The notes under the pieces: model-generated
What the model was told of the DNA's origin: nothing
Database searches by the model: none
What the model saw: the letters and a program-made list of their open reading frames with translations, nothing else
Source: Candidatus Lokiarchaeum ossiferum
GTDB lineage: Archaea > Asgardarchaeota > Lokiarchaeia > Sigyniarchaeales > Promethearchaeaceae
Direction of reading: 5' to 3'
Length of the DNA: 32,000 bases
Assembly: GCA_025839675.1 (NCBI GenBank)
Contig: CP104013.1
Span: forward strand, 4,560,001 to 4,592,000
Program-made: the position numbers and the translations under genes
Part shown: piece by piece, positions 15,070 to 32,000 of the stretch
Layout of the letters: every line of letters starts with the position of its first letter
Numbering within the stretch: the stretch's first letter is position 1

Positions 15070-15282
15070 TTTAATCACCTAATTATTTGGTTATTTTGGA
15101 TTAATTGATCAATTAGTACAAAATCAACATCAAATAGGTTCACCTTACAGAATAAAAGGACTATCTGGAAATTACAAATAAGAAAAAAAAATCGGAGTTT
15201 TTAAGTAACTTTATGCAACAAAAGATAATTCTAAAACTTTCAATTCAAAGTCTAAATTGAATAAAATGGGAGATATATTTTA

Positions 15283-15495: not shown

Positions 15496-15497
15496 AA

Positions 15498-18113
15498 ATG
15501 ATAAAGAGTATGCGATTAAAGAATTTTCGAAAACACTTAGATTATTCTCTCCAGTTGGCTGATGAGTTTAATTTAATTCATGGGCGAAATAATGCTGGAA
15601 AATCCACTTTATTTTATGCTGTGGAATATTGTCTTTTTGGAACTGTACAAGGGTTCAAAAAAATAAACCAATTAGTTCTCTACGGACAAAAAACAATTGG
15701 AGTGGAGCTATTTTTCAAAGGAAAAGATAATCGACAATATAAATTGCAACGGATGCACAAAATATCTGGTAGAACTAATTCCGCAAAAGGATTTTTTACT
15801 TTGAAAGAACTACAACCTCAAGAAAATGGTATGGATGGCAATATAGATGAAGTGTATATCTTATCTACAGATTTTGGGGATAGAGAAGAAAATTTACGAT
15901 TAAAACTTGTTGAACTCACTGGGATCTCCAAACGATTTTTTGAAGCAGGAATGTTTTTCAAACAAGGCACTATTAGCAATATATTAGATGGTTCCAAGAA
16001 TTTAGATGTTATTTTTGGTATAACTGCTGCTAGTGCTTTAGCAGATACCTTTAAAAACAAAATTAATTTATTGGAAAAAAAAACAGCAGGAATTGGGAAT
16101 ATTGAGATTCTACTAAACAAATTACGGGAAGATAAACAAAATAATCTTGCAGAAATATTGAAACTAAATACAGAGATTAATATTTTCCAAAGCAATGTAG
16201 AAAGTCTCAATAAATTCAAAGATGGTTTTTCTTCTATTTTAAAGCATTTTCTTGCTCTCCAATCGATTTTAAATGAACGTGAAGATTTGCAACATGATAA
16301 AGATAACGTTCAAACAAAATATGAGACAATTCAGGAGAAATTTCTATTAATTCTCAAAGATAATCATTCCTTAGAAGATATGGATGATAAATTTCATGAA
16401 TTTAAGGAATGTGCAAAAGCGATAAACGATGAAATTGAAAATTTTGATAAAAAAAAACATGAAATTGAACAGTTGACACAACAATACCAGTCGAAGATCA
16501 TGGAACTCGAATTAAATCAGAAAAATCGTAATGTATTGCTTGATGAATTGACAGAACAACAAGAGGAATTTGGCGATAGTTGTTCGATTCAGCAAAAATT
16601 GAACCAAAGTGAAATCAAATTATCCAATAATGGTGAAATTGAAGACGAACTTAATCAAAAAATTGACAAACTTGTTTTAGCTGAGAAAAAAATGGAATCT
16701 GATATTGGAAATATTGGAGGTATTCTAGCGAGGCGTCAAAAATCTTCTGAAAGTCCATTATGCGAATATTGTGGAAATTCTATTGATAAAAATGCAGTAA
16801 TTAAGGAAATCAAAAACTTGGAGTATGAAAATTTAAAATTGAAGCAAGAAAAGAAAGAAATAAATCTCCAAATCGAGACATTAAAAGACACAAAAAAAAC
16901 TCTTTTGCATGAAAATCAAAGCATATTGCTCGAGAAACAAAAATTGTCTTTAAAATACACTCAGTTGAAAAAAATTCATGCTCAAATTGCTATTCTTGAT
17001 GGAAATGGTAATATCTTAAGTAAATTATCCGAATATGCGCAAATTCAAGATCAAAATGAAAAAGAATGTAGTGAGATACAAAGAATAATAGCAAACAAGC
17101 AGATTCAGTCACAACAAATATCTGCTCAAATGGCTCAATTAAAAACCCAATGCGATTTAGCTCATGATATGAATATAAGCCTAAAGCAAATTGGGGGAGA
17201 AAAGGAAAAAGTCAATCAAAAAATTCAAGAAAATCTTGACAAGCTTATAGAATCTATTAATCAATTAAAAATTTGTTTTCAATCCCTTAAAGAATCTGAT
17301 TTTCTTGATAAATCTGAAAGAAGTGATGGATTAGTTCAACAAAATCATAATTTTCAAGAGAATGAATTTTCTGATTCTTTTTCTCCAGATATAATATTCA
17401 GTGAATCTCAAGAGGGATTACTGGCGATTTCCACTGATCCATTAGATTTTTTATCAATCAAAAAATTTACTGAAAAAAATGTTGATCTAATTAAAAATCT
17501 CGGTAGTAAATTGGATACCTTGCTTAATGTAAGTCACCAGGAATTGCAGAAGGTTAATAAAAAATTAATTGAAAGTCAACAAAATTTAATGGAATTGGAC
17601 AAAGAAATCAGCCATTACAATGCAAAGTTGATTAATATTCAAAGAATTTTGACTTTACTCTCTAAATATACAAGTTATAAACAGATATTTGAAGAAATTC
17701 AAAACACTATTCGTGAAAATGCTTCTAAAGCCTTAGAAGGAAAAATTTTAGACTATCATAATTGTCTATCTTTGGAATCAGAATTTAGTAAAATTCAAGT
17801 GGATAACACAGATTATAGTTTAAACGTGACCCCAATTGATGCCGGAACCGATGATATATATCCAGCAAATGTTTATCAAGGGGGTGGGCATAAGTTAATG
17901 TTGGGGTTAGCATACAAATTTGCAATTGGTGATCTTATTGGTAATCCTCCTGTATTGCTTATTGATGAACCTACCGAATTTATTGATTCGGAAAATCGTG
18001 AAAATGTATTATCCCATTTACATAACATTACTCAACATAGCCAAGTTCTACTTATCACACACCAAGATGTCGATAAAATTACTTCCCAACAAAAAATCAG
18101 AATTCAAACATAG
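15498..18113 (+). CDS. Rad50/SbcC-like ABC ATPase with a long coiled coil and a central CxxC zinc hook
   Basis: Walker A GRNNAGKST, Q-loop FFKQGT, about 600 aa of heptad-rich K/E/Q/L sequence, and CEYC at the coiled-coil midpoint. The C-terminal lobe has QGGGHK in place of LSGGE, Walker B VLLIDEP and H-loop LLITHQD. Alternative TTG start at 15492. Confidence 0.8.
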   Translation: MIKSMRLKNFRKHLDYSLQLADEFNLIHGRNNAGKSTLFYAVEYCLFGTVQGFKKINQLVLYGQKTIGVELFFKGKDNRQYKLQRMHKISGRTNSAKGFFTLKELQPQENGMDGNIDEVYILSTDFGDREENLRLKLVELTGISKRFFEAGMFFKQGTISNILDGSKNLDVIFGITAASALADTFKNKINLLEKKTAGIGNIEILLNKLREDKQNNLAEILKLNTEINIFQSNVESLNKFKDGFSSILKHFLALQSILNEREDLQHDKDNVQTKYETIQEKFLLILKDNHSLEDMDDKFHEFKECAKAINDEIENFDKKKHEIEQLTQQYQSKIMELELNQKNRNVLLDELTEQQEEFGDSCSIQQKLNQSEIKLSNNGEIEDELNQKIDKLVLAEKKMESDIGNIGGILARRQKSSESPLCEYCGNSIDKNAVIKEIKNLEYENLKLKQEKKEINLQIETLKDTKKTLLHENQSILLEKQKLSLKYTQLKKIHAQIAILDGNGNILSKLSEYAQIQDQNEKECSEIQRIIANKQIQSQQISAQMAQLKTQCDLAHDMNISLKQIGGEKEKVNQKIQENLDKLIESINQLKICFQSLKESDFLDKSERSDGLVQQNHNFQENEFSDSFSPDIIFSESQEGLLAISTDPLDFLSIKKFTEKNVDLIKNLGSKLDTLLNVSHQELQKVNKKLIESQQNLMELDKEISHYNAKLINIQRILTLLSKYTSYKQIFEEIQNTIRENASKALEGKILDYHNCLSLESEFSKIQVDNTDYSLNVTPIDAGTDDIYPANVYQGGGHKLMLGLAYKFAIGDLIGNPPVLLIDEPTEFIDSENRENVLSHLHNITQHSQVLLITHQDVDKITSQQKIRIQT

Positions 18114-18126
18114 GATTGAAAAAACA

Positions 18127-18672
18127 ATGCAAACTAAAATGGACAATTATTCCGATCAAAACCAACAAAATAATGCGGTTGAAGAGTTCAAGGCAAAATT
18201 TAAGCAAATTTATGCTGGTCCTAATTATGTGGTGGAGGAAATGCTTGAAAATGTACAATCCGATCCCCAACCCCTCGGAAATACTTCCGAAATGCTGATC
18301 CAAAAATTTATGATGGAGATCATTCGGAAACTTGTGAAATTTTTGCAATCAAATAAGATTCGGCATGATTTCTTTAAACTAGGTTTAATGAAAGCAGATC
18401 CAATCTGGACCCCTGTCAGAAAAATGGTGATTGTAAAAAGAATCGAAGAATTTCGTCAAAAAAAGGTGGTTCAAAAGGGAAAGAAATATGATATTTCGGA
18501 TCTGAAATCTTCGATGCTTGGAAAAGAAGTGGTTAAGCGGGTTGGATTTGGAAATCGGAATATTTTATCAAAAGTGGAATATGCTTTGGTGACCGAACAA
18601 ATAAAAAAACTAAAATATGAATCACCAATAGTGATAAAACCTACTACGACCGAGATATTTTTTAAAAAATAA
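18127..18672 (+). CDS. hypothetical protein (181 aa), operon member
   Basis: ATG lies 13 nt after the Rad50-like stop. The track ORF starting at 17920 would overlap the previous gene out of frame. No motif recognised. Confidence 0.55.
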   Translation: MQTKMDNYSDQNQQNNAVEEFKAKFKQIYAGPNYVVEEMLENVQSDPQPLGNTSEMLIQKFMMEIIRKLVKFLQSNKIRHDFFKLGLMKADPIWTPVRKMVIVKRIEEFRQKKVVQKGKKYDISDLKSSMLGKEVVKRVGFGNRNILSKVEYALVTEQIKKLKYESPIVIKPTTTEIFFKK

Positions 18673-18677
18673 CTTTT

Positions 18678-19616
18678 ATGGAGAGAATTCAAATGAGTGC
18701 AGAGAATCAAACAAAACCTATTTCAGAATTTGCGAAATTGATGGAATCGAAACGAATTGTTGATATTCGGGAAAATATTAATATTGTAATGGAAGGTCAA
18801 TATGAATATGCTTATAATGCGATGTTAGATGCGTATAATGCAGGGTTGTTTGTTGGACTAGTTGGACCCGTGGGCTGTGGAAAAACTGCTTTATGTCGGA
18901 AATTTGCTTATGATATGAATCGCGATTTTTATTGGGTAACCTTTTCAGATTTAGTGCGCCCGGCGACATTAATCGGTTCATTTGATCCTACACTTGTATT
19001 TAAGTATGGTTTTTCAGCAGAAGCATATGTACCCGGACCCTTTACATTAGCTGCATTAAAAGGGGGCGTGTTTTTAGCCAATGAGCTGAATCGGGGTGAT
19101 GAATATGTGCTAAATAGTATGTTGGATGCAATGGAAGAACGTCGATTATATATTCCCCAATTAAAATCATGGCTTGAAGTAGATTCTAATTTTTACGTAA
19201 TTTCGGCCATGAATCCCTCTGAAATGCGAGGTACTCGAAAATTACCATCTGCAATAAAGGATCGAATAAAAGTCTGGATTCACTTGGGGTATCCTTCCCG
19301 TGCTTTAGAACAAAAAATCATTCAAAGTAATTGTTCAGAATACAATTTATCTGCCATGACTCACGAAAAAATATTAGAATTGATGATTCAGTGTCGTAAT
19401 GATCCGAATGTTGAAAAACCTCCTAGTCTTCGGACTAGTATTGGTCTGGCCCGATTTGTGGCTGAACGTTCGAAGCGATTAAAGGTTCCTATTGATAATC
19501 AATTATTGGCAGATTCAGCAAAACTCATATTAAAAGATTCACTGGAGTTACGTCCAGGGAAAAATCTTGATACATTTATTAAAGATCTTCTAATTCGGGT
19601 AGTTGGAGTTGCCTAA
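18678..19616 (+). CDS. MoxR/CbbQ-type AAA+ ATPase (AAA_5/AAA_3-like)
   Basis: Walker A GPVGCGKTA, Walker B region VFLANELNRGDEYVLNSMLDAMEERRLYIP (MoxR-type hhhDEINR...LLEAMEER), sensor-1 region VISAMNP. Alternative ATG at 18693. Confidence 0.8.
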   Translation: MERIQMSAENQTKPISEFAKLMESKRIVDIRENINIVMEGQYEYAYNAMLDAYNAGLFVGLVGPVGCGKTALCRKFAYDMNRDFYWVTFSDLVRPATLIGSFDPTLVFKYGFSAEAYVPGPFTLAALKGGVFLANELNRGDEYVLNSMLDAMEERRLYIPQLKSWLEVDSNFYVISAMNPSEMRGTRKLPSAIKDRIKVWIHLGYPSRALEQKIIQSNCSEYNLSAMTHEKILELMIQCRNDPNVEKPPSLRTSIGLARFVAERSKRLKVPIDNQLLADSAKLILKDSLELRPGKNLDTFIKDLLIRVVGVA

Positions 19617-19647
19617 ATAAATTTCTTAATTGAAGGGATGAGAATCA

Positions 19648-22236
19648 TTGTTAGGTAAAAATCAATCTTTAATTGGGGACCCGCCATGTTTAAACAATAT
19701 TCAAGGTGTAATTCTTACCCCTATCCAATTTTCCATTGAATTTATTTTTAGAATGCGCAAGTCTAAATCACTCTTATTTAATGTACCAAGTTCAAGACAA
19801 GCTCTTGCCATCCCAAAGCTTCTAACGGCCATGTACTATAGGAAAAATATTCTCACTCCTGAAAATTTTATTACTTCTGCTGTGATAACTACTCCCATTG
19901 AGGATCAGATTGTTGCTAAGCGAATAGCCACTGAGATTTTATTTCCCGATAACAGATCGATTGATTTATCTGGTTCTACAATCGCCTCACCAACTGCAAG
20001 ATCTATTTCTGGAAAAAATGTGTCTCAAGTTAAAAAAGAGGATCTATTTGATGATTTTTTAGCAGAAGTTGATGATTTAGGTCTTGATTTGAATGAAATT
20101 AATTCTCAAGCTTTTGATGGAACTGCTGATCTCAAAGAATTCGAATATCTTATGGATTTTATCCAAGATTTTTACGAAAAAGCTGCAAATCAGCAAGATC
20201 CATTCTTATCTATAGCCAGCATTTTTGATCAGCGCCAAGGGTATATAGATATGTTACATCGAGGCATCAATACTTTACAGAAAGCTCAAGATCATGCCCA
20301 CCAATTAGTATCACAATCTGTACAACAACTTTCTCCAAAAGATGTTCAAGCTGCTACAAATTTAGGTTGGAGTGATGAGTTGCTTACACAAACGCATGCA
20401 CCATGGATAAAAATGGGCCTGGAATATTGTGCAAAATCTTCAGAATATGGACAACATCTAATTGATCTTATCAAAACTGCTGATATTGGTACGTGTACAA
20501 AAACTCTTCAGTTTATTAAAGATTTGGGTGAAAAAGAATCGATATTAAAGTGTCATGCTGCTCAAATTCAACAAAAAATTAGATCGTTATCTGATGTTTG
20601 GGAAATGTCACAGATTTCTGACCAAATCCCTGTATTTAACAAAAAAAAAGTATTTAAACAAAGTTTGCACAAGAATCTCGAAAATGCGTTTGATATAGCT
20701 CGAAGAATGTCTTCAAAATTTGATTCCCCAATGGCTCATGAATTGCACGATCAGTGGGCCCAGCAAAATCAGTCTCCCGATTTGGCAGATCTCTATCATG
20801 CACAATATCCTGTTCCACAGTGGGATCAAAATTTAACTCAGTTCGTAAAGGATGCTTTGGCTAAAATTTCAACTTCTCAGGACCCTCAATCTCAGAAGAA
20901 CTCCGCTCAAATTAATGAATTAATTCAAAATCTAATGCAATATTCAGAAAGATGTTTTTATTCTCATTGTGCTGAGAAATTTAAAGAAGAAGCATCTCAA
21001 TCCGGTTTTGTTTCTTTAAAAAACTGTGCTTCTCCTGAAGAATTCATACACCAAGTTAAATTCCTACTGAAAATACAGATTCCCATGGTTATTAGTAAAA
21101 TGTATGATATTGGAACTCAAAAAGGAATTTCGGAAGAACGTCTCATGGAAATTATTGGTGGTTCTTTTGAAATTTTGAAGAAGTTATTTGCAAAACAATT
21201 GAACTCCCATGAAGTTTTTTCAAAACTTCTTGACACATGTAAATCTTTATCTAAAAGTCAACTTGCTGATCTAACTCAGATAGCGGCAAACAATAAAAAT
21301 TTCTATGGTTTAAGTGCTTTAGCCCATAAAGATTTCAGTTGTACAATGAATTGTATTTCTGGAATGAATCAAAATGCTCAAAATTTGTTTATTGACAGTT
21401 TATCGGCTGGACCTGGTGAAAATCTTCTTTTGCAATGGTTTCATCACCGTCGGAATATTCCAAAAGACATGAAAAAGCGGATTCGAGAATTAACTAAATC
21501 CATGTTGATTAGAATTGCTTTGAATATTGTTTCGAATCAAAGGGGAACTGGTGAAAAAGGATTGATTCCCACCTCGAAATTACGGCCTTATATTGAAGGA
21601 GATCCAATGGATTTGGTCGATATTGACGCTTCCATTGAAAACATCATTACATCAGGAAAAAATCTTGAACATGTTTGTGGGGATGATTTATTCGTCCAAG
21701 ATTCTCAAAAAGGGCGAGTATCCATTTGTTTCCTATTGGATATTTCAGGATCCATGAGCGGTGATAAATTAGCTGCTTGTTCCATTGCCACTTTAGTCCT
21801 AATTGGGCATCTTAAAACCGAAGAAGTAGCCATTGCATTTTTTGAATCTGATACCCATACTGTTAAATCATTTGATGATGAGAAAGATCTTGATGATATT
21901 GCTGACGAACTTCTTGATCTTCATGCACGAGGAGGAACTCAAGTACAAAAGGCTCTTGAATGGGGTCATTCACAACTAGAAAGTTCAACAGCTGAATACA
22001 AGTTATGTTTTTTGTTAACAGATTGTGAATTCTTTGAATCTTTTAATGTTGTTAGAAAGGAACTTGAGAAATATGTAAATTTACGCGCTCATTTTCTTCT
22101 TGGTGTGAATACACGATCTTATTCAAGAAGCTATGCAAATTTAATTCTTGATACAACCCAAGGAGAATTACTTAAAATCCTCAATATTGCTGAAATTCCG
22201 CAAATCATTATGGAAACCTTGGAAAAAATTGGATAA
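19648..22236 (+). CDS. large helical protein with a C-terminal von Willebrand factor A (VWA) domain carrying a MIDAS motif
   Basis: VSICFLLDISGSMSG (D-x-S-x-S at nt 21739-21753), later ARGGTQ and LLTDCE. The N-terminal ~650 aa are helical and Q-rich with an acidic stretch DLFDDFLAEVDDLGLDLNE. TTG start; the N-terminus is uncertain. Confidence 0.75.
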   Translation: MLGKNQSLIGDPPCLNNIQGVILTPIQFSIEFIFRMRKSKSLLFNVPSSRQALAIPKLLTAMYYRKNILTPENFITSAVITTPIEDQIVAKRIATEILFPDNRSIDLSGSTIASPTARSISGKNVSQVKKEDLFDDFLAEVDDLGLDLNEINSQAFDGTADLKEFEYLMDFIQDFYEKAANQQDPFLSIASIFDQRQGYIDMLHRGINTLQKAQDHAHQLVSQSVQQLSPKDVQAATNLGWSDELLTQTHAPWIKMGLEYCAKSSEYGQHLIDLIKTADIGTCTKTLQFIKDLGEKESILKCHAAQIQQKIRSLSDVWEMSQISDQIPVFNKKKVFKQSLHKNLENAFDIARRMSSKFDSPMAHELHDQWAQQNQSPDLADLYHAQYPVPQWDQNLTQFVKDALAKISTSQDPQSQKNSAQINELIQNLMQYSERCFYSHCAEKFKEEASQSGFVSLKNCASPEEFIHQVKFLLKIQIPMVISKMYDIGTQKGISEERLMEIIGGSFEILKKLFAKQLNSHEVFSKLLDTCKSLSKSQLADLTQIAANNKNFYGLSALAHKDFSCTMNCISGMNQNAQNLFIDSLSAGPGENLLLQWFHHRRNIPKDMKKRIRELTKSMLIRIALNIVSNQRGTGEKGLIPTSKLRPYIEGDPMDLVDIDASIENIITSGKNLEHVCGDDLFVQDSQKGRVSICFLLDISGSMSGDKLAACSIATLVLIGHLKTEEVAIAFFESDTHTVKSFDDEKDLDDIADELLDLHARGGTQVQKALEWGHSQLESSTAEYKLCFLLTDCEFFESFNVVRKELEKYVNLRAHFLLGVNTRSYSRSYANLILDTTQGELLKILNIAEIPQIIMETLEKIG

Positions 22237-22241
22237 ATTGG

Positions 22242-23387
22242 TTATACTGAAATTCGTAAAGATTTTTGCTTAGGAGCTTCCCTTATATATCCGATGATAT
22301 ACGCAATTCCTACTAAGGAAGCTATTAACTTTGTATTTTCCAACATTCGATCGATTTCTGTATCGGTGCGGAGTAATATTGCTAAAATAATTATACAAAG
22401 AATTAGCATATAGAAGCTTCCGGGCATAACTCCAACATTGTCACTTTTATAGATTTTTTGCTCAATGAAGAAATAGATTCCAGCAATAATTAATCCATTT
22501 AATGGTGCTGCGATCCACCAATATTCAAAATGTAGTGTATTTAGTAGAATATATTGGACGATGCAAAGAATATACAAGACAATTAATACTAAAAGGCCAT
22601 AGAATTTATCTTGAATTAAGGAAACAATTTCCATCCCAATACCAGCAAAGATGATGGTTATTGCCAGATTTCGAATCCATTCTGTGGAGTTGATGGTTTG
22701 AGTTTCAGGAAACAAAACTACGGATCCATTATATATTATTGCCACAATCGTCACCAAAATGGCAAGAGCTTTGAAGGCATCAATGATATAATTGTAAAAT
22801 GTTGCCCGTGAATAAGAGCTTACTAATTTATGGGGTTTAATATGGGGAACAACCTTTGGTTGGCCCATCAAGATGATAAAGAATGGATAAACTCCCATTA
22901 TTAATGCAATGCTGATCATAAATGCTCCAGGGAGGAAAAATTCGAATAAAAAGCAAATTCCACAGATCCAGAGTGCCCAAAAACTGGTGTTATATAGAGG
23001 TTTCTTCTTTTTAGGTGTTAAACCGTGTTCGGCTCGGATAAAGAACCATCCCAAAAAGGCAAAAGAATAGGAAAGTATAGATGCCCAAATAATTATTTCT
23101 GAAAGTGCTATTTCCCACCCTTTTTGAATATTAATGAATAGGAAAATGCTCGCAATGGCACCTGTAATTGAAAAAATAAGTGTAATTAGGCGACTTATTC
23201 TGTCTAAGTATGATGTTTTCATACTCAGATAATCCATGACAAATATAATGACAAGAATTGAACTTTCAAATATGATTATTCGGGAAAAAACATTGAAATC
23301 AATGTTTTCTAATGTAATTTGTGAAATTTTGATTGTAATATAGGGGAAAAAGCACACTAACCCAAGATAGTAGTATATTTTCATCAT
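22242..23387 (-). CDS. polytopic membrane protein, unknown function
   Basis: 381 aa with about 11-12 hydrophobic segments. Convergent with the VWA gene, with stop codons 5 bp apart. Confidence 0.6.
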   Translation of the reverse strand: MMKIYYYLGLVCFFPYITIKISQITLENIDFNVFSRIIIFESSILVIIFVMDYLSMKTSYLDRISRLITLIFSITGAIASIFLFINIQKGWEIALSEIIIWASILSYSFAFLGWFFIRAEHGLTPKKKKPLYNTSFWALWICGICFLFEFFLPGAFMISIALIMGVYPFFIILMGQPKVVPHIKPHKLVSSYSRATFYNYIIDAFKALAILVTIVAIIYNGSVVLFPETQTINSTEWIRNLAITIIFAGIGMEIVSLIQDKFYGLLVLIVLYILCIVQYILLNTLHFEYWWIAAPLNGLIIAGIYFFIEQKIYKSDNVGVMPGSFYMLILCIIILAILLRTDTEIDRMLENTKLIASLVGIAYIIGYIREAPKQKSLRISV

Positions 23388-23508: not shown

Positions 23509-23516
23509 AAAAAAAA
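23509..23516 (-). terminator. Oligo-T tract (T8 on - strand) ending the actin-cluster transcription unit
   Basis: A8 on the + strand, 18 nt downstream of stop 23534. Confidence 0.45.
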
Positions 23517-23533: not shown

Positions 23534-24055
23534 TTAACTGCGCATGAATGAAGGTAACATAAGATTGAAAATTTGTAATATTTCCTTTAACTTTGATTTT
23601 TCATTCACTAATGTACCAATCAATATTGTTTTCATAAGAGAATCTTTGCTTAAAGGGCCACTCGTGAATAGTGCTGATGATGGAGACCAAATGAGCAAAT
23701 ATTTCACATTTGGATTATTAATTAAATCGATTCCTTGAGTTGCTTTTAATTTATCATATATTTTAGCATATTCATCAGGCCATAATCGTCTATCGTTCAA
23801 GACAATTTGGACTTTAATTCCATTTTTTGCCCGATCTTGTAAAATCAAAGCAAATTCTTCCGTTATATAAGGTGCAACAATTTTAATTTCAGTTGCATTG
23901 GTTATAATTTCCGCAATATGGTTATTCATCTCGTGTTCTTTTCCCGCCAGTCCTCCGGTAAAAATTTTAATTGCTCCCACTAAGCGGAGAAGTCGGTTTT
24001 CGAGATCTTCAATTCTCTTTTTTAATTTCATATTTTCGGCTGCTAATAAAGACAT
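23534..24055 (-). CDS. coiled-coil plus degenerate PLD-like domain protein (TrmB middle-domain-like, no HTH)
   Basis: N-terminal heptad helix AENMKLKKRIEDLENRLLRL is followed by EIKIVAPYITEEFALILQDRAKNGIKVQIVLND. NVKYLLIWSPSSALFTSGPL aligns to the PLD H-x-K-x4-D...GSxN motif with the His and Asp replaced. Confidence 0.45.
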   Translation of the reverse strand: MSLLAAENMKLKKRIEDLENRLLRLVGAIKIFTGGLAGKEHEMNNHIAEIITNATEIKIVAPYITEEFALILQDRAKNGIKVQIVLNDRRLWPDEYAKIYDKLKATQGIDLINNPNVKYLLIWSPSSALFTSGPLSKDSLMKTILIGTLVNEKSKLKEILQIFNLMLPSFMRS

Positions 24056-24120
24056 AAATTCACCCTTATGATCAATTAGTTCTTGTTATTTTTGAACATT
24101 AAGTTTGTTAGTACTATTTT

Positions 24121-26697
24121 CTATTCTAGTTTTAAAGAAGGATCTCCAATAAAAACGTAGTGTGATTCTCGTAAAATCATTTTTAATCTTGAATCTTCTT
24201 CATTCTCATCTGAAAAGCTTTGGGATATATTGAATAATTGTTTGTTGACTTTAAGATGGGCGCTACCTATAGATTCATTAAGAAAGATATGATTAATAAA
24301 TTCCCCCAAGTATAATTTTAGCATATCATTGAATTCATTAGATATTCGAGCAAAAATTCCAATGAAATGACGTGAGCTGATTGATTTGGTAATGTTATAG
24401 ATTTGTGTGAAAAATCGTGGGATTGATTTATTACTTTCATCGATTATCCGGACATCTAAAATCAACAAAGGTCTAAAATAGGGTAATCCTTGAAGTTCGT
24501 TTCGTTGTTTTGCGTAAGATAACATATCAATTATTTCTTGTATGCTGAGTACCTCATTGTTTGAAGTAAGGAAGTAGGATTGGCTAGGATTCTGATCTAA
24601 ATAGAACATATTTGCAGAAATGTGAATTATATTATAAATACCTGATGTAATTTCTTTTTCAATACTATCTTTTGAACTATATGAGGGATCAATAGAAGAA
24701 AAACGATCTACTAAATTCTGAAGATTATTAATTTTCTCCTCAATAAATTTCCGTTGTATTTCACCATTTTGGAACTTAAATAATGGGCAATATTGTTGTT
24801 CTTCCTCGTTCCAAACATGGGGAAACTTCTGATTTAAGTCACCTATACTTAGCATGGTGAATTTCAGATTAATTTCATCTTGTGATTTTCCCACCTTGAT
24901 TTTTTCCATTGCAAGTTTGGGTTCTCGAAATCTATATCCAAAAGCGAATTTTGATCCAAATGATGATCTTTGATCATTTAGCATTTCAAGAGGAAAATTC
25001 GGCTCATCCATAATTACATAAACTTCGGGGGTATGATCCGATCTTAAATTCAATTCTTCAATAAAATCTCGTATATTTTGAGGTAAAAAAAGATAGGCCA
25101 ACATGCCAAATTGTTGTTGTTCTAAGATAACAGTCTCATTTTTTTCAGAATGGGTTGCATTATCTATGGTCGTGCCATAAACAGGAAGATTTAGATATAA
25201 TTCATTTAAATATGGTTCATCCCAGTATTCCTTGGTTTCAATATTGTCCATTTTCGAAAACCCTGATTTATAGTAAATTTCGGAAAATAATTTAATCGGT
25301 TTTCGGGATGGAATCCTTAATTTTAATAAAATCTCTGAAGGCATCATTCCGCCAATATCCGCTTCTTTTCGGGAAATTCGACGCTCTTTTATACGATTAA
25401 TTGTAAAAGGAAGTTGTTCTTCTATAAGTTGAATAAAGCATGGGTGATCTTGAATTCCCAATTGTTTAGCACTTAACGTAACTATCTCCAAGTAACCTTC
25501 TTCAAAAAACCCTCGATGTAATGCCGCCCACCAGAAGTCTTCTTTTGAAGTAAAAATGTGGCCTCGACATATTAAATAATATTCATTGCGTGCATAGCAA
25601 TAATCCTTAAAAGAATAATAATCATCAGGAACTATGAGCAAATCTCTGTATTCTTTGATGGCTCGCACAAAATATTTTTTGTCTTTTAAATTTCTGAATT
25701 TTTTTGCCGCTTCAGCCCAAATACTTACCAAATATGTGGGAAATCCCTTAAAATTTGTGAAAAATGTGGCTAAATGTTCATACGCAAGGAATGCTGTCTG
25801 ATAGCTGCCTTGTCTGTAGCAGGTTTTTATAAATTCCCTTAAAAATTTTTTTGCTTTTGATAATTCATTATTATTTTTTAATTCTTCACAATAATTTTGC
25901 ACGATAGAATAAGCCCAAGAATTTTCTTTAATCATTTGAAGATTTACAATTGTTTGTTGCGTCAAATCTAAATTTTGTCCCGGATCCATAAGATGAACTT
26001 TTTCTTTGATCAATATATGAAAAGCTTCTTGAACGCTTTTATCAATTTTATTAAGTGAAACCAAATAAATGGTCTCAATAAATTCAATGTATTTAATAGA
26101 ACCCTCAAAAAACTGTTGATAAATATTTAAGCTAACACTTTTTAGTAAAATGGGGCGTTGATCATGGGCAATTTTTCTTAATATTTCAGAGAGTTTGGCT
26201 AAAGTACGTTCAAAATAATCATTTCGTTGATAATTTTTCTTGAAAAATAAAGACAATAGTAAAAGTTCAATGGTTTCTTTAAAATAATCCGCACGAGCGG
26301 TAAAAATTGCTAATGAATCTAAGAAATTCGCAATGCTGAAATCATTTGAAAAGCCAATTTTAACAAGAACTTTGGCTAATCGAAGCCCATTATAAATCAA
26401 ACGCGAAAAATCTTGAATTAAAAAAAGTATTTCAAATAAAAAATTATAGGCATTATAGATAAGAGGCCAATTAGCATAAAAATTTTTAACCAAGACTCGT
26501 AGATGATGCTCCCATAGATCAATTAAAATTGTATATCGGCGCATAATTTCGGAATTAGACAAATTACTTGTCTGTATTTCTTTAATTGTTGTGTTACACA
26601 ATTGAATTGCCCAATATTGTTGTTCTTGATTTAATAGTTTATCAATATGTGATGAAATTTCATCAAAATCATCGATTACATTTGTACCGTGGATCAT
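24121..26697 (-). CDS. large helical-repeat protein with a C-terminal CHAT-like (caspase-fold) domain apparently lacking the catalytic His-Gly/Cys
   Basis: ATG 26697 lies 1 nt after the actin-like stop. The C-terminal third follows the CHAT pattern: LAYLFLPQ..., VYVIMDEPNFPLEML, FAFGYRF, NIIHISANMFY, SIQEIIDML, RPLLILDVR. The N-terminal ~500 aa are alpha-helical and TPR-like by composition. Confidence 0.45.
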   Translation of the reverse strand: MIHGTNVIDDFDEISSHIDKLLNQEQQYWAIQLCNTTIKEIQTSNLSNSEIMRRYTILIDLWEHHLRVLVKNFYANWPLIYNAYNFLFEILFLIQDFSRLIYNGLRLAKVLVKIGFSNDFSIANFLDSLAIFTARADYFKETIELLLLSLFFKKNYQRNDYFERTLAKLSEILRKIAHDQRPILLKSVSLNIYQQFFEGSIKYIEFIETIYLVSLNKIDKSVQEAFHILIKEKVHLMDPGQNLDLTQQTIVNLQMIKENSWAYSIVQNYCEELKNNNELSKAKKFLREFIKTCYRQGSYQTAFLAYEHLATFFTNFKGFPTYLVSIWAEAAKKFRNLKDKKYFVRAIKEYRDLLIVPDDYYSFKDYCYARNEYYLICRGHIFTSKEDFWWAALHRGFFEEGYLEIVTLSAKQLGIQDHPCFIQLIEEQLPFTINRIKERRISRKEADIGGMMPSEILLKLRIPSRKPIKLFSEIYYKSGFSKMDNIETKEYWDEPYLNELYLNLPVYGTTIDNATHSEKNETVILEQQQFGMLAYLFLPQNIRDFIEELNLRSDHTPEVYVIMDEPNFPLEMLNDQRSSFGSKFAFGYRFREPKLAMEKIKVGKSQDEINLKFTMLSIGDLNQKFPHVWNEEEQQYCPLFKFQNGEIQRKFIEEKINNLQNLVDRFSSIDPSYSSKDSIEKEITSGIYNIIHISANMFYLDQNPSQSYFLTSNNEVLSIQEIIDMLSYAKQRNELQGLPYFRPLLILDVRIIDESNKSIPRFFTQIYNITKSISSRHFIGIFARISNEFNDMLKLYLGEFINHIFLNESIGSAHLKVNKQLFNISQSFSDENEEDSRLKMILRESHYVFIGDPSLKLE

Positions 26698-26698
26698 A

Positions 26699-27781
26699 TT
26701 ATTCCCATTCCATCCTTTTTTGCGAATTACGATAAATTTGTGATGCACCTTTCCAAATTGCGTTGGGATTTTGACTATCTTCGAATATTTGCACATTCAA
26801 TGTGATTGGGAAGCGTTTCTTAATTTGTTGTTGCAATTTAGATTTTAAATTTGGAATTTTGACCCCTTGACCACAAAGAACTATATTTTCGAGCATTATT
26901 GGTATTTGATCTCTCTCCCATGCTCTAATTGATCTCATAATAAATTCAATTAGATTATCGGATCGAATATGCGCGAGCTCTGGGATGAAGTATAATTCAC
27001 TCGCAAGAAATTTTTCTTTGTTGATTGTCAACTGATTTCCATCCGGTAAATAAATTGTAAAATCGTATTCTTGTGATCCTGTAGCAATTTCGTCAATTAT
27101 TTCATCAATTCTTAAAGAAGATTCAACTACATCTTCCTTTATTTTTTGGGCAATACTATATAGTGGATGAGTGGAAGAATATTGATATTTTTCAAATATC
27201 ACATCAATAAGATATTGCGTGATATGGTGGCCTCCGATAGGAAAAATAAAATTACTTTCAAAATTTGGAAATCCTTTAAAAATACCTTCAATTCGCGTTG
27301 AAAAATGTCCAAAATCAATGATTGTTCCTGTATCTTTTCCTAAGGCGGTCAAAATTGCTGCAGAATTTGGAATAAAGGCAAATTTTGGAAAACTCATAAT
27401 TTCTTGCAATATTCGTTTTAGTTCATTTAATTCTATTTTTGAAATATAAGATGGATAAACAATGATTAGATTTGATTCTGAAGGGATCCAGCCTTGATTT
27501 TTGAAGATTTCAGCTAAAAAATATGCAAAGGATGAGAAATCTTTGGTCTTAAGAAAATATTTAATGAGCAAGGTATCTTTAAATTTGAGTGCTTTATTTC
27601 CATAATGACGTTCTTTTCCCATCTTGGATAAACCTGTTTGGGATGAAATTTTAACTATGGGTTCATCTGAATCTGCAAATATTGATGGGTTGATAATTTT
27701 AGGCTCATAATCTCCCGCTATACCTATTTTCGTTTCAAAACTTCCTAATTCAACAAGAATGTCAAATTTTACGTCTGTGAT
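26699..27781 (-). CDS. divergent actin-family ATPase (actin/Arp-like); start probably ATC 27781
   Basis: Colinear with actin. The matches are DILVELGSFETKIGIAGDYEPKIINPSIFA (phosphate-1), TGTIIDFGHFSTRIEGIF (phosphate-2), IFPIGGHHITQYL, IYLPDGNQLTINKEKFLASELYFIPEL, NIVLCGQGVKIPNLKSKLQQQI and NAIWKGASQI. The first ATG (27622) would delete phosphate-1. AGGGGAT (27792-27786) plus a 4-nt spacer precedes ATC 27781. Confidence 0.8.
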   Translation of the reverse strand: MTDVKFDILVELGSFETKIGIAGDYEPKIINPSIFADSDEPIVKISSQTGLSKMGKERHYGNKALKFKDTLLIKYFLKTKDFSSFAYFLAEIFKNQGWIPSESNLIIVYPSYISKIELNELKRILQEIMSFPKFAFIPNSAAILTALGKDTGTIIDFGHFSTRIEGIFKGFPNFESNFIFPIGGHHITQYLIDVIFEKYQYSSTHPLYSIAQKIKEDVVESSLRIDEIIDEIATGSQEYDFTIYLPDGNQLTINKEKFLASELYFIPELAHIRSDNLIEFIMRSIRAWERDQIPIMLENIVLCGQGVKIPNLKSKLQQQIKKRFPITLNVQIFEDSQNPNAIWKGASQIYRNSQKRMEWE

Positions 27782-27836
27782 ATGTATCCCCTAATATTAA
27801 TTCAAGAAAGATTCCTAAAAAGATAGTGTAAAAGAA

Positions 27837-28529
27837 TTAATTTACATAGATATCATATAATTCACTAATACTCTGTTGCAATTTGAATTCCCGGATTTGC
27901 ATATTTAACAAATCCATGGTTTTCTTAAAATCTTTTATCACTCGTTTATAATCAATATCACTAAAACGTTCTACTTCATTTCGCTTCATGGAAAAATCTT
28001 TCAATCCGGAGTTCAATTTTAATTCTAAGTCATTGATGGATTTGATTAAACTTTCGGTGTTGGATTCATTAATTCTTCGCATTTTTCGTAGAATCGTTAA
28101 AATCGAAGAAGATGTTTGATTCCAAAGTGAATATCTGTCTTCATAAGACTTTCCTAATTGTTTAAAAAAAATCTCTGAATCACCCCAGAAATTTCCAGTT
28201 GGTGTATCATCTATTTGAACATTGGATTTAACAATCGTTGGTTGTTCTGGAACAGAAGTGGGAGGTTTTAATGTAATTTGTTTTGGTGAAATCAGGGGTT
28301 TGCCAATCAATTTCAATTTTCCTTCTTCAGGAAAGGGGGATTCGGAAGGCTGATCCTCTTTAAGAAATGACGGTGTAGAAACTTTTCCAACATCTGCACT
28401 CGTTGTGGTTTTTAACTTTGGAATTCCATCATCATCCAAATCACTTAACATATTCTTTAATTCTTGAGTTTGTTCTAATTCCTTTTTTTTTTCCTCTGGA
28501 TATTTTGAATTATTAGAATCTTCTGACAT
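27837..28529 (-). CDS. hypothetical protein: acidic/Pro-rich disordered N-half, coiled-coil C-half
   Basis: 230 aa. Residues 1-110 are low-complexity (E, D, P, S, T, K). Residues ~115-230 are helical with heptad character. It lies immediately upstream of the actin-like gene. Confidence 0.55.
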   Translation of the reverse strand: MSEDSNNSKYPEEKKKELEQTQELKNMLSDLDDDGIPKLKTTTSADVGKVSTPSFLKEDQPSESPFPEEGKLKLIGKPLISPKQITLKPPTSVPEQPTIVKSNVQIDDTPTGNFWGDSEIFFKQLGKSYEDRYSLWNQTSSSILTILRKMRRINESNTESLIKSINDLELKLNSGLKDFSMKRNEVERFSDIDYKRVIKDFKKTMDLLNMQIREFKLQQSISELYDIYVN

Positions 28530-28557
28530 TTTCCATCAATTCCTTCTTTTTTAACGT

Positions 28558-28899
28558 TTACCAATTCGATATTGCAGAAAACCATTCTATTAGTGACGAA
28601 TTCATGCGTTTAAAACTATCTTTTACTAACTCATATTCTGTAAACTTTCCTTGTTTAATTCCCATGATCAAATTCTGCTGTTGAAGAATTTTGATATGAT
28701 GGGATATTGTGGATTGTGATTTATTCAATGCACCTTCCAGTTCAGTAATGGTATAGCTCCTTTTTTTTAGAAGATTTACTATCGCAAACCGATCTACATT
28801 TCCGATTGCTTCGATGGAGGCGCGTAAGTTTAATAAGTCAGAATTATTTGCAAGATTTTCTTTTATTTCATTAATTTCTTGTGGTGTCAAATCATCCAT
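28558..28899 (-). CDS. ArsR/SmtB-family winged-helix transcriptional regulator
   Basis: NVDRFAIVNLLKKRSYTITELEGALNKSQSTISHHIKILQQQNLIMGIKQGKFTEYEL is a typical ArsR wHTH. Confidence 0.85.
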   Translation of the reverse strand: MDDLTPQEINEIKENLANNSDLLNLRASIEAIGNVDRFAIVNLLKKRSYTITELEGALNKSQSTISHHIKILQQQNLIMGIKQGKFTEYELVKDSFKRMNSSLIEWFSAISNW

Positions 28900-28902
28900 A
28901 GA

Positions 28903-29718
28903 TCAATGTTCTCCTTTTTTCTTTATATCTTTTCTTTCTATCCATGCATTCCATAGATCGAGAAAATTTTGAACTTTTTCTTTGTCAATACTATAATAAG
29001 TAAATTTACCTTTTTTCCATCCTTTAATTAGACCCTCACTTTCCAATTTTTTAATATGGTGGGATGAAGTGGATTGACTTTTCTTAATCAATTTTTGGAT
29101 ATCGCTTAATTTCAATTGGTGAGTTCTTAGCACTTCTAAAATGAGAAATCTGTCCATATTCCCCAAAACTTCTAATTTTCCAACAAGTGTTTGAAAATCC
29201 TTCTCATTATGAATTTTTGTCGATATATGGCTTGTTCTGACCTTTAAATTTTCCTTATTCTTATGCTTTCCTTCTTTCAATTCATCTGAAGCTATCAAAT
29301 CCTGAATAAGTTTTAATTTATCATCACTCATTTTCAATTTTTGTTTGATGTTGAAATTATGAAATGCTAGTTCAATAGCAGGAAGTAAATCATTAACAGT
29401 TTGGATAGGTTTGATGATATAACTTGAAGGTTCAACATTTTTTGCTTTTTGTAATGTTTCAATATCTTCATGGGCAGTAATGAATATAATTGGAATATCA
29501 TGTTTTTTTTGAATTTCATTAGCAGTATCAATTCCATCCATTTTTCCATCTAATGTAATATCCATTAAGAGAAGATCAGGATTGCTTAATTCTACTTGCT
29601 TTATTGCTTCCTCTCCTGAACTAACAATTTTTAATGGTTCATAATTCATATCGCTTAGCAAGCTTCCGATGCCCATCGCGGTAACGATTTCATCTTCAAC
29701 TATCAAAATTTTTTTGAT
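28903..29718 (-). CDS. response-regulator receiver (REC) domain fused to an ArsR-type wHTH
   Basis: REC motifs: ILIVEDE, phospho-acceptor LLLMDITL, IIFITAH, YIIKP. The C-terminus NMDRFLILEVLRTHQLKLSDIQKLIKKSQSTSSHHIKKLESEGLIKGWKKGKFTYYSI is ArsR-like. Canonical TTG 29706 would give MIVEDE. In-frame ATC 29718 (or ATA 29721) after a G5 tract at 29731-29727 gives MKKILIVEDE. Confidence 0.8.
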   Translation of the reverse strand: MKKILIVEDEIVTAMGIGSLLSDMNYEPLKIVSSGEEAIKQVELSNPDLLLMDITLDGKMDGIDTANEIQKKHDIPIIFITAHEDIETLQKAKNVEPSSYIIKPIQTVNDLLPAIELAFHNFNIKQKLKMSDDKLKLIQDLIASDELKEGKHKNKENLKVRTSHISTKIHNEKDFQTLVGKLEVLGNMDRFLILEVLRTHQLKLSDIQKLIKKSQSTSSHHIKKLESEGLIKGWKKGKFTYYSIDKEKVQNFLDLWNAWIERKDIKKKGEH

Positions 29719-29863: not shown

Positions 29864-30775
29864 TCAAAAATCATCATTTGAGAATATTTTATGATATTTC
29901 CATTCATTCCGATTTATGAAATTAATTTTCCTAATTTCCAATATTCTCTCCTCGAATTGCTTTAAAGAATGGCAATCAGAACCGATAGAAAATGGAATGT
30001 CATTGGCGAGAAGGTGATGGAACATATCCAAGTTTGGAAATGACTCTTTCCATGGATAATAAAGCCCACTTAGATTTATCTCATACAACATATTTGAGTT
30101 CCTCACCAAATGACCTAATTCGATTGTTGGAAAGTATTGTCTGTATTCGGGAGTGAACCAAATATGATGATTTGTTAAAAATCGAAAAATGACATCTGGA
30201 TGGGCCACTACATCAAAAAGCTGACTGTGAATCAATTTATGCAATTTATCAAAATATTTGCCAAGAACTTTTGAAAAAGATCCATGTTTTTCAACCAACC
30301 ATTGTAAATCTCTTAGAACTGTAATTGCTCGGAAATCTTCTATCTCATGGGCACTTCCTACAATCAAATCGAATTCATTTTGATAGTCCTCTAAAAAATT
30401 CTGGAGTTGGTCTTCTCTTTCGGGATAATATTCTAATTCCAAGCCTGATGAAATATGTTTGTAGTGTTCTTTTGCTGAATCTATTTCTTCTAAATATTCT
30501 GATAAGGTTTCAGGATTTAAGATAGAATTTCGCGTGTTAATGTGGGATTTCTCAAAACATGCCAATTCGTAGTGATCTGCAAATCCAATATGAATCTTAT
30601 ATTTTTCAGATAATTGAGCATATTTTTCAATTGTGGCTCCTGAAGAAGCATCTATGGACCAATTTGTGTGTACATGGAGATCAAAATCCCAATTAGGTGC
30701 AATTTTTCGGAATATTCTGTAATGATTCGCTCTATTTGGCATCTCATTCATCTTTCTCGGAATTAACGTTTCCAT
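29864..30775 (-). CDS. PHP-domain phosphoesterase (HisJ-type histidinol-phosphatase family)
   Basis: DLHVHTNWSIDA, GFADHYE, GSAHEI, VAHPD, SIGSDCHS. Alternative ATGs at 30751 and 30742. All three options overlap or abut the Hef stop (30746-30744). Confidence 0.8.
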   Translation of the reverse strand: METLIPRKMNEMPNRANHYRIFRKIAPNWDFDLHVHTNWSIDASSGATIEKYAQLSEKYKIHIGFADHYELACFEKSHINTRNSILNPETLSEYLEEIDSAKEHYKHISSGLELEYYPEREDQLQNFLEDYQNEFDLIVGSAHEIEDFRAITVLRDLQWLVEKHGSFSKVLGKYFDKLHKLIHSQLFDVVAHPDVIFRFLTNHHIWFTPEYRQYFPTIELGHLVRNSNMLYEINLSGLYYPWKESFPNLDMFHHLLANDIPFSIGSDCHSLKQFEERILEIRKINFINRNEWKYHKIFSNDDF

Positions 30776-32000
30776 GGTCTAAATAATCGGCATTTGCATA
30801 CTTGAAAATATTTTGTGCAATAGCTGGGCCGATATTTGGGACTTTTTGAATTTTTTTTTCGTTGGCATTCAATAACTCACGCAACGTTCTAAATTCAATC
30901 AATAAATCTTTAGCTCTCGAAGCATTTATTCCTGGAATTCCAGAAATTATGAATTCTAATTGTTCGGGTATTTTTTCGGGAAATTTTTTGAATCTAATAG
31001 AAAAATGTTTTGAAGGTTTGTCTGATTGTTCTTTTTTAGCTAAAGCTATTAAAATCTCAGCTGTTTCTTCAGGGGAGGTTGTTTGATATAAAAATATCCT
31101 CATTTTTAACAAAATACTGGTTAAAGTTCCTAATACGGCTGCTCGATTAATTGATGTTATCGAATTTATTCCTCCCTCAATTATTAAAATTGGAATCGTG
31201 AATTGAGTCTTTAGCCGTTGAAGTTCGTTAAAAAGTCGACCATCTTTTATTGAACTAATAAAATCCGGAATTGATTTTCGCTCTATTCCACACTGCTCCG
31301 ATATTATATAATCTCCCGTTGGTAATTTTTGGATTGATACATTTGCATTTCTTTCAGCTAACTCACGTGTTACTGAAGATGCCGTTTCTCGAGAATCAAC
31401 TAAGATATAAGGTTTTGATTTGTCTAGGGGTATAGAAATCTTTCCTAAATTATCTGATTGGAGTAGATCTGGTGCAGAATTTGGTTCTTTTGGATCATTT
31501 TGCAGTTTAGAGTCTTTTTCTTGGGGGGATTTTATTTCCTTATTTGGGTTATTTGGTGTTTTTTTTAAAAATGCAGTTAAGCTCTTTTGCCCCCGATTTT
31601 CTGATGAATTTGCCATTGGTTGTATTTCTCTTCGAATATCATTTAAAACTCTTTTCATTTCCTTCTCACGATGTTTTTCAGCCCAAAAATATCCTTCTTC
31701 CCGAGTTCCCATGGTTTTAAAAATTATGACTTTTCCCGATCGGTTTCGTCCAGTTCTTCCTCGTCTTTGGATTGCACGAATTTCACTAGGTACCACATCA
31801 AAGAAGATTACAACATCACATTCTGATATGTCTAATCCTTCTTCTGCAACTGATGTCGCTACCAATGTATTATATACTCCACTCTTAAACTGTTGTAAAA
31901 TTTCAAGTTGTTGTTTTTGAGACAAGCCTTTTTCTTTTCCTTTTTTCTGTTGTCCCACAAAGCTATGGGGGTGGATTAATGTATTTTTCTCAATTTGCTC
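30744..32000 (-). CDS. hef: Hef helicase/nuclease, C-terminal part (helicase C-lobe, linker, ERCC4 nuclease, HhH2); 5' end outside window
   Basis: Frame is open to nt 32000 (EQIEKNTLIHPHSFVGQ...). Helicase motifs VATSVAEEGLDI and QRRGRTGR are followed by a disordered linker. The ERCC4 region is ILVDSRE...GDYII...GIERKSIPDF...PILIIEG, and HhH2 is GIPGINASRAKDLL...VPNIGPAIAQNIF. Confidence 0.9.
   Translation of the reverse strand, partial: EQIEKNTLIHPHSFVGQQKKGKEKGLSQKQQLEILQQFKSGVYNTLVATSVAEEGLDISECDVVIFFDVVPSEIRAIQRRGRTGRNRSGKVIIFKTMGTREEGYFWAEKHREKEMKRVLNDIRREIQPMANSSENRGQKSLTAFLKKTPNNPNKEIKSPQEKDSKLQNDPKEPNSAPDLLQSDNLGKISIPLDKSKPYILVDSRETASSVTRELAERNANVSIQKLPTGDYIISEQCGIERKSIPDFISSIKDGRLFNELQRLKTQFTIPILIIEGGINSITSINRAAVLGTLTSILLKMRIFLYQTTSPEETAEILIALAKKEQSDKPSKHFSIRFKKFPEKIPEQLEFIISGIPGINASRAKDLLIEFRTLRELLNANEKKIQKVPNIGPAIAQNIFKYANADYLDHGNVNSEKDE

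Follow-up and report, generated by a model that had tools for sequence, protein, structure and literature searches.

An actin-related protein (ARP) gene in Candidatus Lokiarchaeum ossiferum lies in an operon whose partner genes have stayed with it across very divergent loci, and we lean towards the view that this conserved operon encodes a dedicated multi-subunit complex built around the divergent ARP, with a structural or regulatory rather than a catalytic role. The DNA analyzed here, which we call the window, is a stretch of 32,000 nucleotides (nt) from this archaeon, and coordinates refer to the whole stretch unless another locus is named. The genes in question all lie on the minus strand and encode subunit A (27837-28529; 230 amino acids, aa), a core member that belongs to an orphan family; the ARP itself (26699-27787; 362 aa as annotated, GenBank UYP47647.1); subunit C (24121-26697; 858 aa), which combines TPR-like repeats with a CHAT/caspase fold; subunit D (23534-24055; 173 aa), a coiled coil joined to a PLD fold; and protein E (22242-23387; 381 aa), a polytopic membrane protein.

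The ARP gene and its partners are linked in twelve loci

Twelve independent loci were compared, namely the window, five loci reached through homologues of the ARP (L001, L003, L004, L005 and L007) and six reached through homologues of the 858-aa subunit C (L010 to L015). Their GC content ranges from 0.32 to 0.67, and the least similar ARP and C are 25% and about 16% identical to those of the window, respectively. The ARP gene lies directly upstream of the gene for C (~850 aa), on the same strand, in all 12. The junctions extend from an 11-nt overlap (-11 nt) to a gap of 45 nt, with six overlapping pairs and one that abuts; in the window, C starts 1 nt past the ARP stop codon. Such a linkage, kept in 12 of 12 loci, is far beyond chance. 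An earlier note on this DNA had singled out the pair of actin-like and CHAT-like genes, and the pair is indeed syntenic in related genomes, which is consistent with translational coupling. Scanning GTDB genomes and JGI metagenomes with a profile of C added one known locus and one fragment.

The other genes follow the pair to different degrees. Gene A (220-280 aa) precedes the ARP gene in ten loci; it has moved downstream of C in L013 and is partial, at the start of the contig, in L012, and homologues of A adjoin the ARP in every locus where the sequence permits a check. Gene D (167-181 aa) comes after C in ten loci, and hidden Markov models of the close homologues pick up the distant A and D proteins with E-values of 1e-34 to 1e-50; for A, these are 1e-34 to 1e-48. 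Gene E (381-417 aa) follows D in the window, L001, L004, L005 and L007, at 34-92% identity. The five module proteins co-vary across loci: the trio of A, ARP and C is universally linked, D is present in most loci, and E is found in one subgroup. The window, L001 and L005, with ARPs that are just 37% identical, all have a Hef-PHP gene pair upstream of the module. This stable chromosomal context indicates vertical inheritance, and the Hef-PHP neighborhood is old within the Lokiarchaeum-like group.

The ARP is a divergent actin that has lost key catalytic residues

Translated, 26702-27787 gives 362 aa that match a Ca. Lokiarchaeum ossiferum hypothetical protein at 100% identity, and both published primers for reverse transcription quantitative PCR of UYP47647.1 match the window exactly (27477-27496 and 27214-27233). 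Besides Lokiactin, L. ossiferum encodes three further actin homologues, of which UYP47647.1 is one; phylogenetically, it clusters with Asgard and eukaryotic ARPs and not with the Lokiactins (Rodrigues-Oliveira et al., 2022, Nature, PMC9834061). All actin homologues of this organism are transcribed, Lokiactin several-fold higher than the ARP (PMC9834061). Thus, the actin-like gene itself has already been published as an ARP. Its gene context, by comparison, appears to be new: that paper mentions neither neighbors nor partner proteins of the ARP (PMC9834061), the literature searched contained no mention of ARP neighbors, ARP partners or a link between CHAT and actin in Asgard archaea, and the supplements of two L. 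ossiferum papers held no expression or proteome data for the locus.

Membership of the actin family, rather than of the Hsp70 or sugar-kinase families, is supported by a Pfam Actin (PF00022) match that scores 95.6 bits, above the cut-off of 27 (E=3.2e-27, residues 10-350), with no match to Hsp70, MreB, ParM or sugar-kinase families at E<=0.1. In a phmmer search of the Protein Data Bank (PDB), the top 60 matches are all eukaryotic actins (E about 2e-23), and no Arp in the PDB is as close to the protein in sequence as conventional actin is. At 24% identity to human beta-actin (ACTB), it is far more divergent than Lokiactin, as the earlier note had judged; Lokiactin shares 58% identity with rabbit muscle actin (PMC12050087). 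Other details read in that note are likewise present in the sequence, namely a phosphate-1 motif of ELGS, a C-terminus that ends shortly after WKGASQI, and actin motifs that are colinear through all four subdomains.

Alignment of all 12 module ARPs with ACTB allows us to describe which actin positions the family retains. Conserved are structural glycines and several residues of the nucleotide site, namely G13, G156, K213, G301, W340 and W356; not conserved are D11 (Glu here), G15, Q137, D157, G158 and H161. In the window's ARP, Q137 is replaced by Asn (Asn, His, Asp or Ala across the family), DSGDGV by DFGHFS, and H161 by Arg. In actin, the catalytic water is held in place by Q137 and H161, and G158 is in contact with the phosphate groups. 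The loss of the equivalents of these three residues would make a fast ATPase unlikely. The family also has features of its own: an invariant W-x-R at actin positions 285-287; a conserved W-loop, FKGFPN, in which Y169 is replaced by Phe and GFP is invariant; a D-loop segment (ADSDEPL...) that is conserved and exceeds actin's by 7 residues; and a C-terminus about 19 residues shorter, in which the C-terminal helix of subdomain 1 is missing. That even the distant module ARPs share such family-specific features argues that they form one clade.

How translation of the ARP starts in the window is less straightforward. Its frame contains no ATG, GTG or TTG upstream of the phosphate-1 motif, and the GTG start of the 81%-identical relative in L001 corresponds to GTA at 27770-27772, with the same 24 nt upstream in both genomes (region 27767-27790, minus strand). 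NCBI places the start at ATA 27787, and ATC 27781 is another in-frame candidate. The cultured strain would either initiate the ARP at a near-cognate codon or translate it less strongly. A junction of 55 nt between A and the ARP, as given in the earlier note, is right only if ATC at 27781 is taken as the start.

These features bear on the alternative that survives best, in which the module builds cytomotive filaments in the manner of crenactin/arcadin or ParM: the ARP would polymerize with nucleotide, A, C and D would be its regulators or adaptors (a nucleator, capper or depolymerizer), and E would anchor it at the membrane. A true actin-family fold with four colinear subdomains agrees with this idea, as does the strong conservation of the W-loop and of the segment equivalent to the D-loop, which is expected for subunit contacts or for docking of a partner. 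The C-terminal peptide of D, described below, also recalls arcadin-2, whose action on crenactin has been described (PMC12050087). Set against these points are the family-wide lack of conservation of the hydrolysis and phosphate-binding residues (Q137, D157, G158, H161 and G15), the missing C-terminal helix of subdomain 1, and a transcript level several-fold below that of Lokiactin (PMC9834061). Moreover, its tight coupling, of a 1:1 type, to a scaffold of 850 aa sets the module apart from known filament operons. We consider a filament system unlikely.

Subunit C is a TPR-like repeat protein with a pseudo-CHAT domain

Subunit C belongs to a very small family. An exhaustive HMMER search found 41 relatives among 1.84 billion representatives; about 20 of these are full length (833-911 aa), and none connects to a larger family. 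Word-indexed protein searches, with the 858-aa protein alone or with a six-sequence profile, returned only the protein itself, and a profile of C gave nothing meaningful against PDB sequences (a DNA polymerase at E>=0.05). The profile searches thus did not assign C to an unrelated family.

Its architecture is visible in an AlphaFold2 model built on 21 relatives (pLDDT 87.9, pTM 0.86). About 21 helices are arranged in TPR-like pairs over residues 11-441, followed by a three-stranded beta-hairpin sheet (453-491) and an alpha/beta domain of CHAT/caspase fold from about 545 to 858. In a Foldseek search of the PDB, the first match is the TPR-CHAT anti-sigma factor DdvA (3.8e-9), followed by separases from C. 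elegans and human (1e-5 to 1e-4) and SAVED-CHAT (3e-4); the remaining matches are generic TPR proteins. TM-scores of about 0.2 are expected for long multi-domain matches of this sort, and the assignment rests on the E-values and on the proteins recovered. At the sequence level, the Pfam CHAT family (PF12770) scores 14.5 bits, below its gathering threshold of 24; weak CHAT matches occur in three of six C members and Peptidase_C25 matches in two of six, and CHAT-type motifs are recognizable at both ends of the domain.

The catalytic residues of a CHAT protease are not among the features that C has kept. Across residues 440-858 of 21 members, no Cys column reaches 30% conservation, and the best His column reaches 62%. 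The positions that match the CHAT His and Cys, by motif reading and without structural superposition, hold Asn and Arg, Gln or Val. Subunit C is a family-wide pseudo-protease that lacks the Cys-His dyad. Together, the model, the Foldseek matches and these columns bear out the earlier description of the ~860-aa protein as a helical-repeat, CHAT-fold pseudo-protease.

Subunit D is a pseudo-PLD with an invariant C-terminal peptide

Subunit D is the most conserved of the module proteins (39-97% identity). Its AlphaFold2 model (pLDDT 80) consists of an N-terminal coiled-coil helix (residues 3-25) and a single PLD fold. Foldseek matches it to NucT (2.9e-8, TM 0.67-0.72) and also to TrmBL2, over both the coiled coil and the C-terminal domain, to a bacterial PLD, to Zucchini and Nuc, and to the pseudo-PLD FAM83. 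The Pfam PLDc_2 match, at 22 bits, is under the cut-off of 27, and a match to FilR1_middle is also sub-threshold.

The HxK(x)4D motif of PLD enzymes reads N-V-K-Y-L-L-I-W-S in D, and its His is absent from all eight aligned members; the Lys varies too, and one member reads G-x-Y. With the His replaced by Asn and the Lys variable, D is a pseudo-PLD. It also lacks a winged helix-turn-helix (wHTH) domain, given that no HTH family in Pfam matches and that the protein starts directly with the coiled-coil helix, and so it is not a TrmB-family regulator. The label of a TrmB-like PLD-fold protein, which D had been given before, therefore holds for the coiled coil and the TrmBL2/Nuc-like PLD fold but not for membership of the TrmB regulator family. 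All ten D sequences end in an invariant C-terminal peptide, LPSFMR (23537-23554 in the window).

Subunit A carries a related peptide and protein E is a membrane protein

The N-terminal half of A is disordered, charged and variable, and often consists of poly-Lys followed by a Pro-rich stretch; its C-terminal ~125 aa form a conserved helical domain. Subunit A has no Pfam match and no sequence match in the PDB, profile searches included, and Pfam searches with members of the A and E families gave no consistent family. Within the disordered part, TPSFLK lies at residues 52-57 (numbered on the translation without the initiator Met; about 28356-28373 in the window). Five close members carry TPSFLK or QPSFIS in this part, and L011 carries TPAFMAK. 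Judging from these sequences, LPSFMR of D and the TPSFLK-like motif of A may be versions of one short linear motif that binds at the same docking site.

The linker of A is hypervariable and its C-terminal domain is conserved. Long poly-Pro tracts are present in L007 and L004, and a run of more than 20 Lys/Asp residues in L011. In the 67%-GC locus L012 (1-545, frame 0), seven or more tandem PPGAAA repeats stand at the start of the A homologue. In eukaryotes, poly-proline tracts are profilin ligands.

Protein E, with about 10 transmembrane segments predicted by a hydropathy scan, matches no Pfam family and is an orphan. The cluster in the earlier note had left out this membrane gene, which is conserved downstream of D.

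A proposed non-catalytic complex around the ARP

Three of the module's proteins (ARP, C and D) have enzyme-like folds, and all three lack catalytic residues. This shared loss suggests that the assembly is most likely a structural or regulatory scaffold and not an ATP-driven polymer, a protease or a nuclease. The readings of C as an active protease and of D as an active nuclease were rejected, given the missing Cys/His and the missing HKD histidine, respectively.

From the sequences and models, we propose a stable, non-catalytic, multi-subunit ARP complex in which C serves as the scaffold. The ARP and C, expressed from translationally coupled genes, would form a stoichiometric core, to which A, with its disordered linker and helical domain, and D would be added as further subunits; D is probably a dimer held together by its coiled coil and PLD-fold domain. 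Short peptides are typical ligands of TPR domains, and the barbed-end cleft of actin accepts short helices or peptides. The PSF[LM][KR]-type peptides of A and D could accordingly find a docking site on the TPR surface of C or, alternatively, in the conserved barbed-end cleft of the ARP, at the FKGFPN W-loop. In Lokiarchaeum-like genomes, the presence of a gene for the 10-segment membrane protein E next to D suggests that the complex acts at the membrane, where it might anchor, cap or organize Lokiactin filaments. Expression would be under lineage-specific regulators, which in L. ossiferum would be the REC-ArsR protein and a second ArsR protein. The physical complex, the peptide docking, the association with the membrane and the link to Lokiactin are all inferred; a role in organizing Lokiactin is plausible as pure inference.

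Several observations weigh against this proposal or against parts of it. The retention of G13, G156, K213 and G301 leaves room for nucleotide binding by the ARP and even for slow hydrolysis or polymerization. The ARP gene has no canonical start, and its translation in L. ossiferum is therefore not assured. No gene D was found beside C in L012, where the gene after C is on the opposite strand, and the contig of L013 ends before a D gene could be read. Gene E is not adjacent to D in the distant loci L010 to L015. The PSF motif is short and is absent from several A homologues. Finally, the actin fold alone ties the module to Lokiactin or to a cytoskeleton.

A bolder form of the proposal would make this module the first candidate for an archaeal ARP holo-complex. 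A non-polymerizing ARP would sit permanently on a TPR-pseudo-CHAT scaffold resembling separase and DdvA, joined by a pseudo-PLD dimer and a Pro-rich adaptor and, in Lokiarchaeia, by a membrane tether, and the whole would organize or nucleate Lokiactin at the membrane. We regard this fuller picture as tentative and rather doubtful. Were it true, the eukaryotic principle that ARPs work inside dedicated complexes would predate eukaryotes.

Upstream regulators differ between lineages

Two regulator genes precede A on the minus strand in the window. The first encodes a response regulator (28903-29706; 267 aa) with a receiver (REC) domain and an ArsR-type wHTH, both above their Pfam thresholds (Response_reg 76.7 bits, E=2e-21; HTH_5 31.8 bits, E=1.3e-7). 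The second, which begins 3 nt after the REC-ArsR gene and ends 28 nt before gene A, encodes a stand-alone ArsR-family wHTH regulator (28558-28899; 113 aa; HTH_5 45.3 bits, E=8e-12, above threshold). The pair recurs in L001, the only other locus in which the stand-alone ArsR gene is conserved; L003 has different REC-HTH fusions together with HisKA_2 histidine kinases, and ArsR-type regulators are absent upstream of the module in L004, L005, L007 and L010 to L015. A gene with AbrB/SpoVT-like and ACT domains lies just upstream of A in L011 (3-356), L014 (3416-3820) and L015 (3379-3792), which represent a distant, partly high-GC branch, while L004, L005 and L007 have no regulator gene in this position. 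This distribution suggests that the same operon may be under lineage-specific transcriptional control. The ArsR pair, absent in most loci, is ruled out as a core part of the module: the regulator domains reported previously are real, but they are lineage-specific and not conserved members. The phospho-relay-regulated cytoskeletal module that had been suggested may exist in L. ossiferum but does not describe the family as a whole.

Regulators such as these also figure in another explanation, according to which the module senses a ligand or is tied to transcription. Here D would be a TrmB/FilR1-type sensor without a DNA-binding domain that works with wHTH regulators; alternatively, the module would be a nucleoid or chromatin ARP module comparable to those of the eukaryotic Arp4 type. 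The match of D, over its coiled coil and PLD-like domain, to the archaeal chromatin protein TrmBL2, its FilR1_middle match, and the ArsR, REC-HTH and AbrB/ACT regulators upstream in several lineages are in keeping with this explanation, and genes for a histone-fold protein, Rpb6 and Hef lie nearby in L001 and L005. However, D has no wHTH, the regulators differ by lineage and are lacking in some, the other loci do not keep the histone, Rpb6 and Hef genes near the module, and E is a membrane protein. We therefore view a regulatory module of this kind as improbable.

A strain-specific island flanks the module in L. ossiferum

Next to the module, on the plus strand, lies a block of genes that includes an SMC/ABC-type ATPase (15492-18113) matching the Lamassu ATPase LmuB (PADLOC E=6.5e-21), a 250-aa open reading frame (ORF; 17920-18672), a MoxR-type AAA+ ATPase (18678-19616) and an 862-aa VWA-domain protein (19648-22236). 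In L001, 165 nt separate gene E from a downstream HSP20 gene, which shares 94% identity with window 14710-15078. The closeness of HSP20 to E in L001 identifies the 7.2 kb between 15079 and 22241 as an insertion specific to L. ossiferum, and the 15079-22241 block looks like a strain-specific defense or conflict island of the MoxR-VWA type. No SMC-like gene neighbors the module at any other locus read (L001, L003 to L005, L007, L010 to L015). The SMC-like gene had previously been read as Rad50-like and as recalling arcadin-4 of the crenactin locus. It is instead LmuB-like, on the opposite strand and within a block that L001 lacks, and the arcadin-4 analogy is ruled out, as the insertion is unrelated to the module.

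The island raises the question of whether the module is itself an anti-virus or conflict system, with the actin-fold NTPase as a sensor or switch, the CHAT- and PLD-fold proteins as effectors and, in some lineages, a membrane effector. CHAT and PLD folds are common effector modules in defense systems, SAVED-CHAT is among the closest structural matches of C, and D has weak DrmC matches in PADLOC (E=2.8e-4), in addition to the LmuB-like/MoxR/VWA island next door. Yet C lacks the catalytic Cys/His and D the HKD histidine, and A, the ARP, C and E have no PADLOC match. The chromosomal context is kept between genomes whose ARPs are 37% identical, the island is absent from the nearest relative, L001, which retains the module, and the family of C is very narrow and gives no sign of mobility. 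A defense role is, in our view, very improbable. That these genes are functionally unlinked and adjacent by chance is effectively refuted: in 12 of 12 very divergent loci ARP and C are neighbors, their coding regions overlapping or abutting.

Comparison with other actin-related and pseudo-enzyme systems

Returning to the proposed non-catalytic ARP complex, a close archaeal parallel is the crenactin/arcadin cluster of Crenarchaeota. In both cases, an archaeal actin-family gene lies in a conserved cluster with lineage-specific non-actin partners, one of which may act through a short terminal peptide. The module's partners, however, share no fold or sequence with the arcadins as far as tested, and whereas crenactin is a competent filament-forming ATPase, the module ARP has lost key catalytic residues. 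In concept, the module also resembles eukaryotic assemblies such as Arp2/3, the Arp1/Arp11 of dynactin and the Arp4/Arp8 of HSA modules, in which a divergent, probably non-polymerizing actin fold is held with dedicated non-actin subunits, although we found no module subunit homologous to ARPC1-5, to dynactin or to HSA-domain proteins.

The partners, too, have recognizable counterparts. Subunit C resembles TPR-CHAT proteins (DdvA, separase, SAVED-CHAT and Csx29-type proteases) in placing a CHAT/caspase fold after TPR-like helical repeats. It differs from them in lacking the Cys-His dyad and a transmembrane or SAVED domain and in being coupled to an actin-fold protein, which has been described for none of them. 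Subunit D shares its fold with single-domain PLD and pseudo-PLD proteins (Nuc/NucT, Zucchini, the TrmBL2 C-terminal domain and the DUF1669 domain of FAM83) and its arrangement of coiled coil and PLD-like domain with TrmBL2. Unlike the TrmB family it has no wHTH, and unlike other PLD-fold proteins it combines a replaced HKD histidine with the invariant C-terminal LPSFMR.

Asgard archaea encode several ARPs besides Lokiactin, and these are usually listed only as eukaryotic signature proteins. A partner set that stays with one ARP clade provides the first concrete handle on the role of such a protein, and its three to four named partner proteins can be tested in an organism that has already been cultured and imaged by cryo-electron tomography. 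If the complex is real, it would extend the use of ARPs in dedicated multi-subunit machines to archaea, and CHAT and PLD pseudo-enzyme folds would gain an unexpected use as structural subunits.

Gene layout and neighborhood of the window

The ORF check of the window gives six same-strand ORFs, all on the minus strand, from the REC-ArsR gene to D. Intergenic distances of 3, 28, 1 and 65 nt, as previously listed, are exact. The REC-ArsR gene is present as described, but its start at 29718 does not hold, the first canonical start being a TTG at 29706. A T8 run at 23509-23516 (minus strand; sequence read), 17 nt after the stop of gene D, is present and is a possible archaeal oligo-T terminator; as the end of the cluster it does not stand, because gene E is conserved downstream in five loci. 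A scan of the window for tRNAs and Rfam families gave no matches, and a scan for sigma-70 promoters and intrinsic terminators, which is ill-suited to archaea, gave no enrichment.

Upstream of the regulators, the PHP-domain gene (29864-30775) overlaps by 32 nt the 3' end of the Hef-type gene (30744-31958, minus strand), which encodes a helicase/ERCC4 nuclease and is cut off by the end of the window. Elsewhere, small GTPase genes of the Arf/Ras/Roc families and a roadblock/LC7 gene lie a few kb from the module, in no fixed position: Arf/Roc-family GTPase genes flank it in L001 (491-1033), L004 (5044-6024) and L011 (8390-9997), and the roadblock/LC7 gene in L014 (537-926). Such flanking Arf/Roc GTPase and roadblock/LC7 genes are consistent with Asgard genomes.

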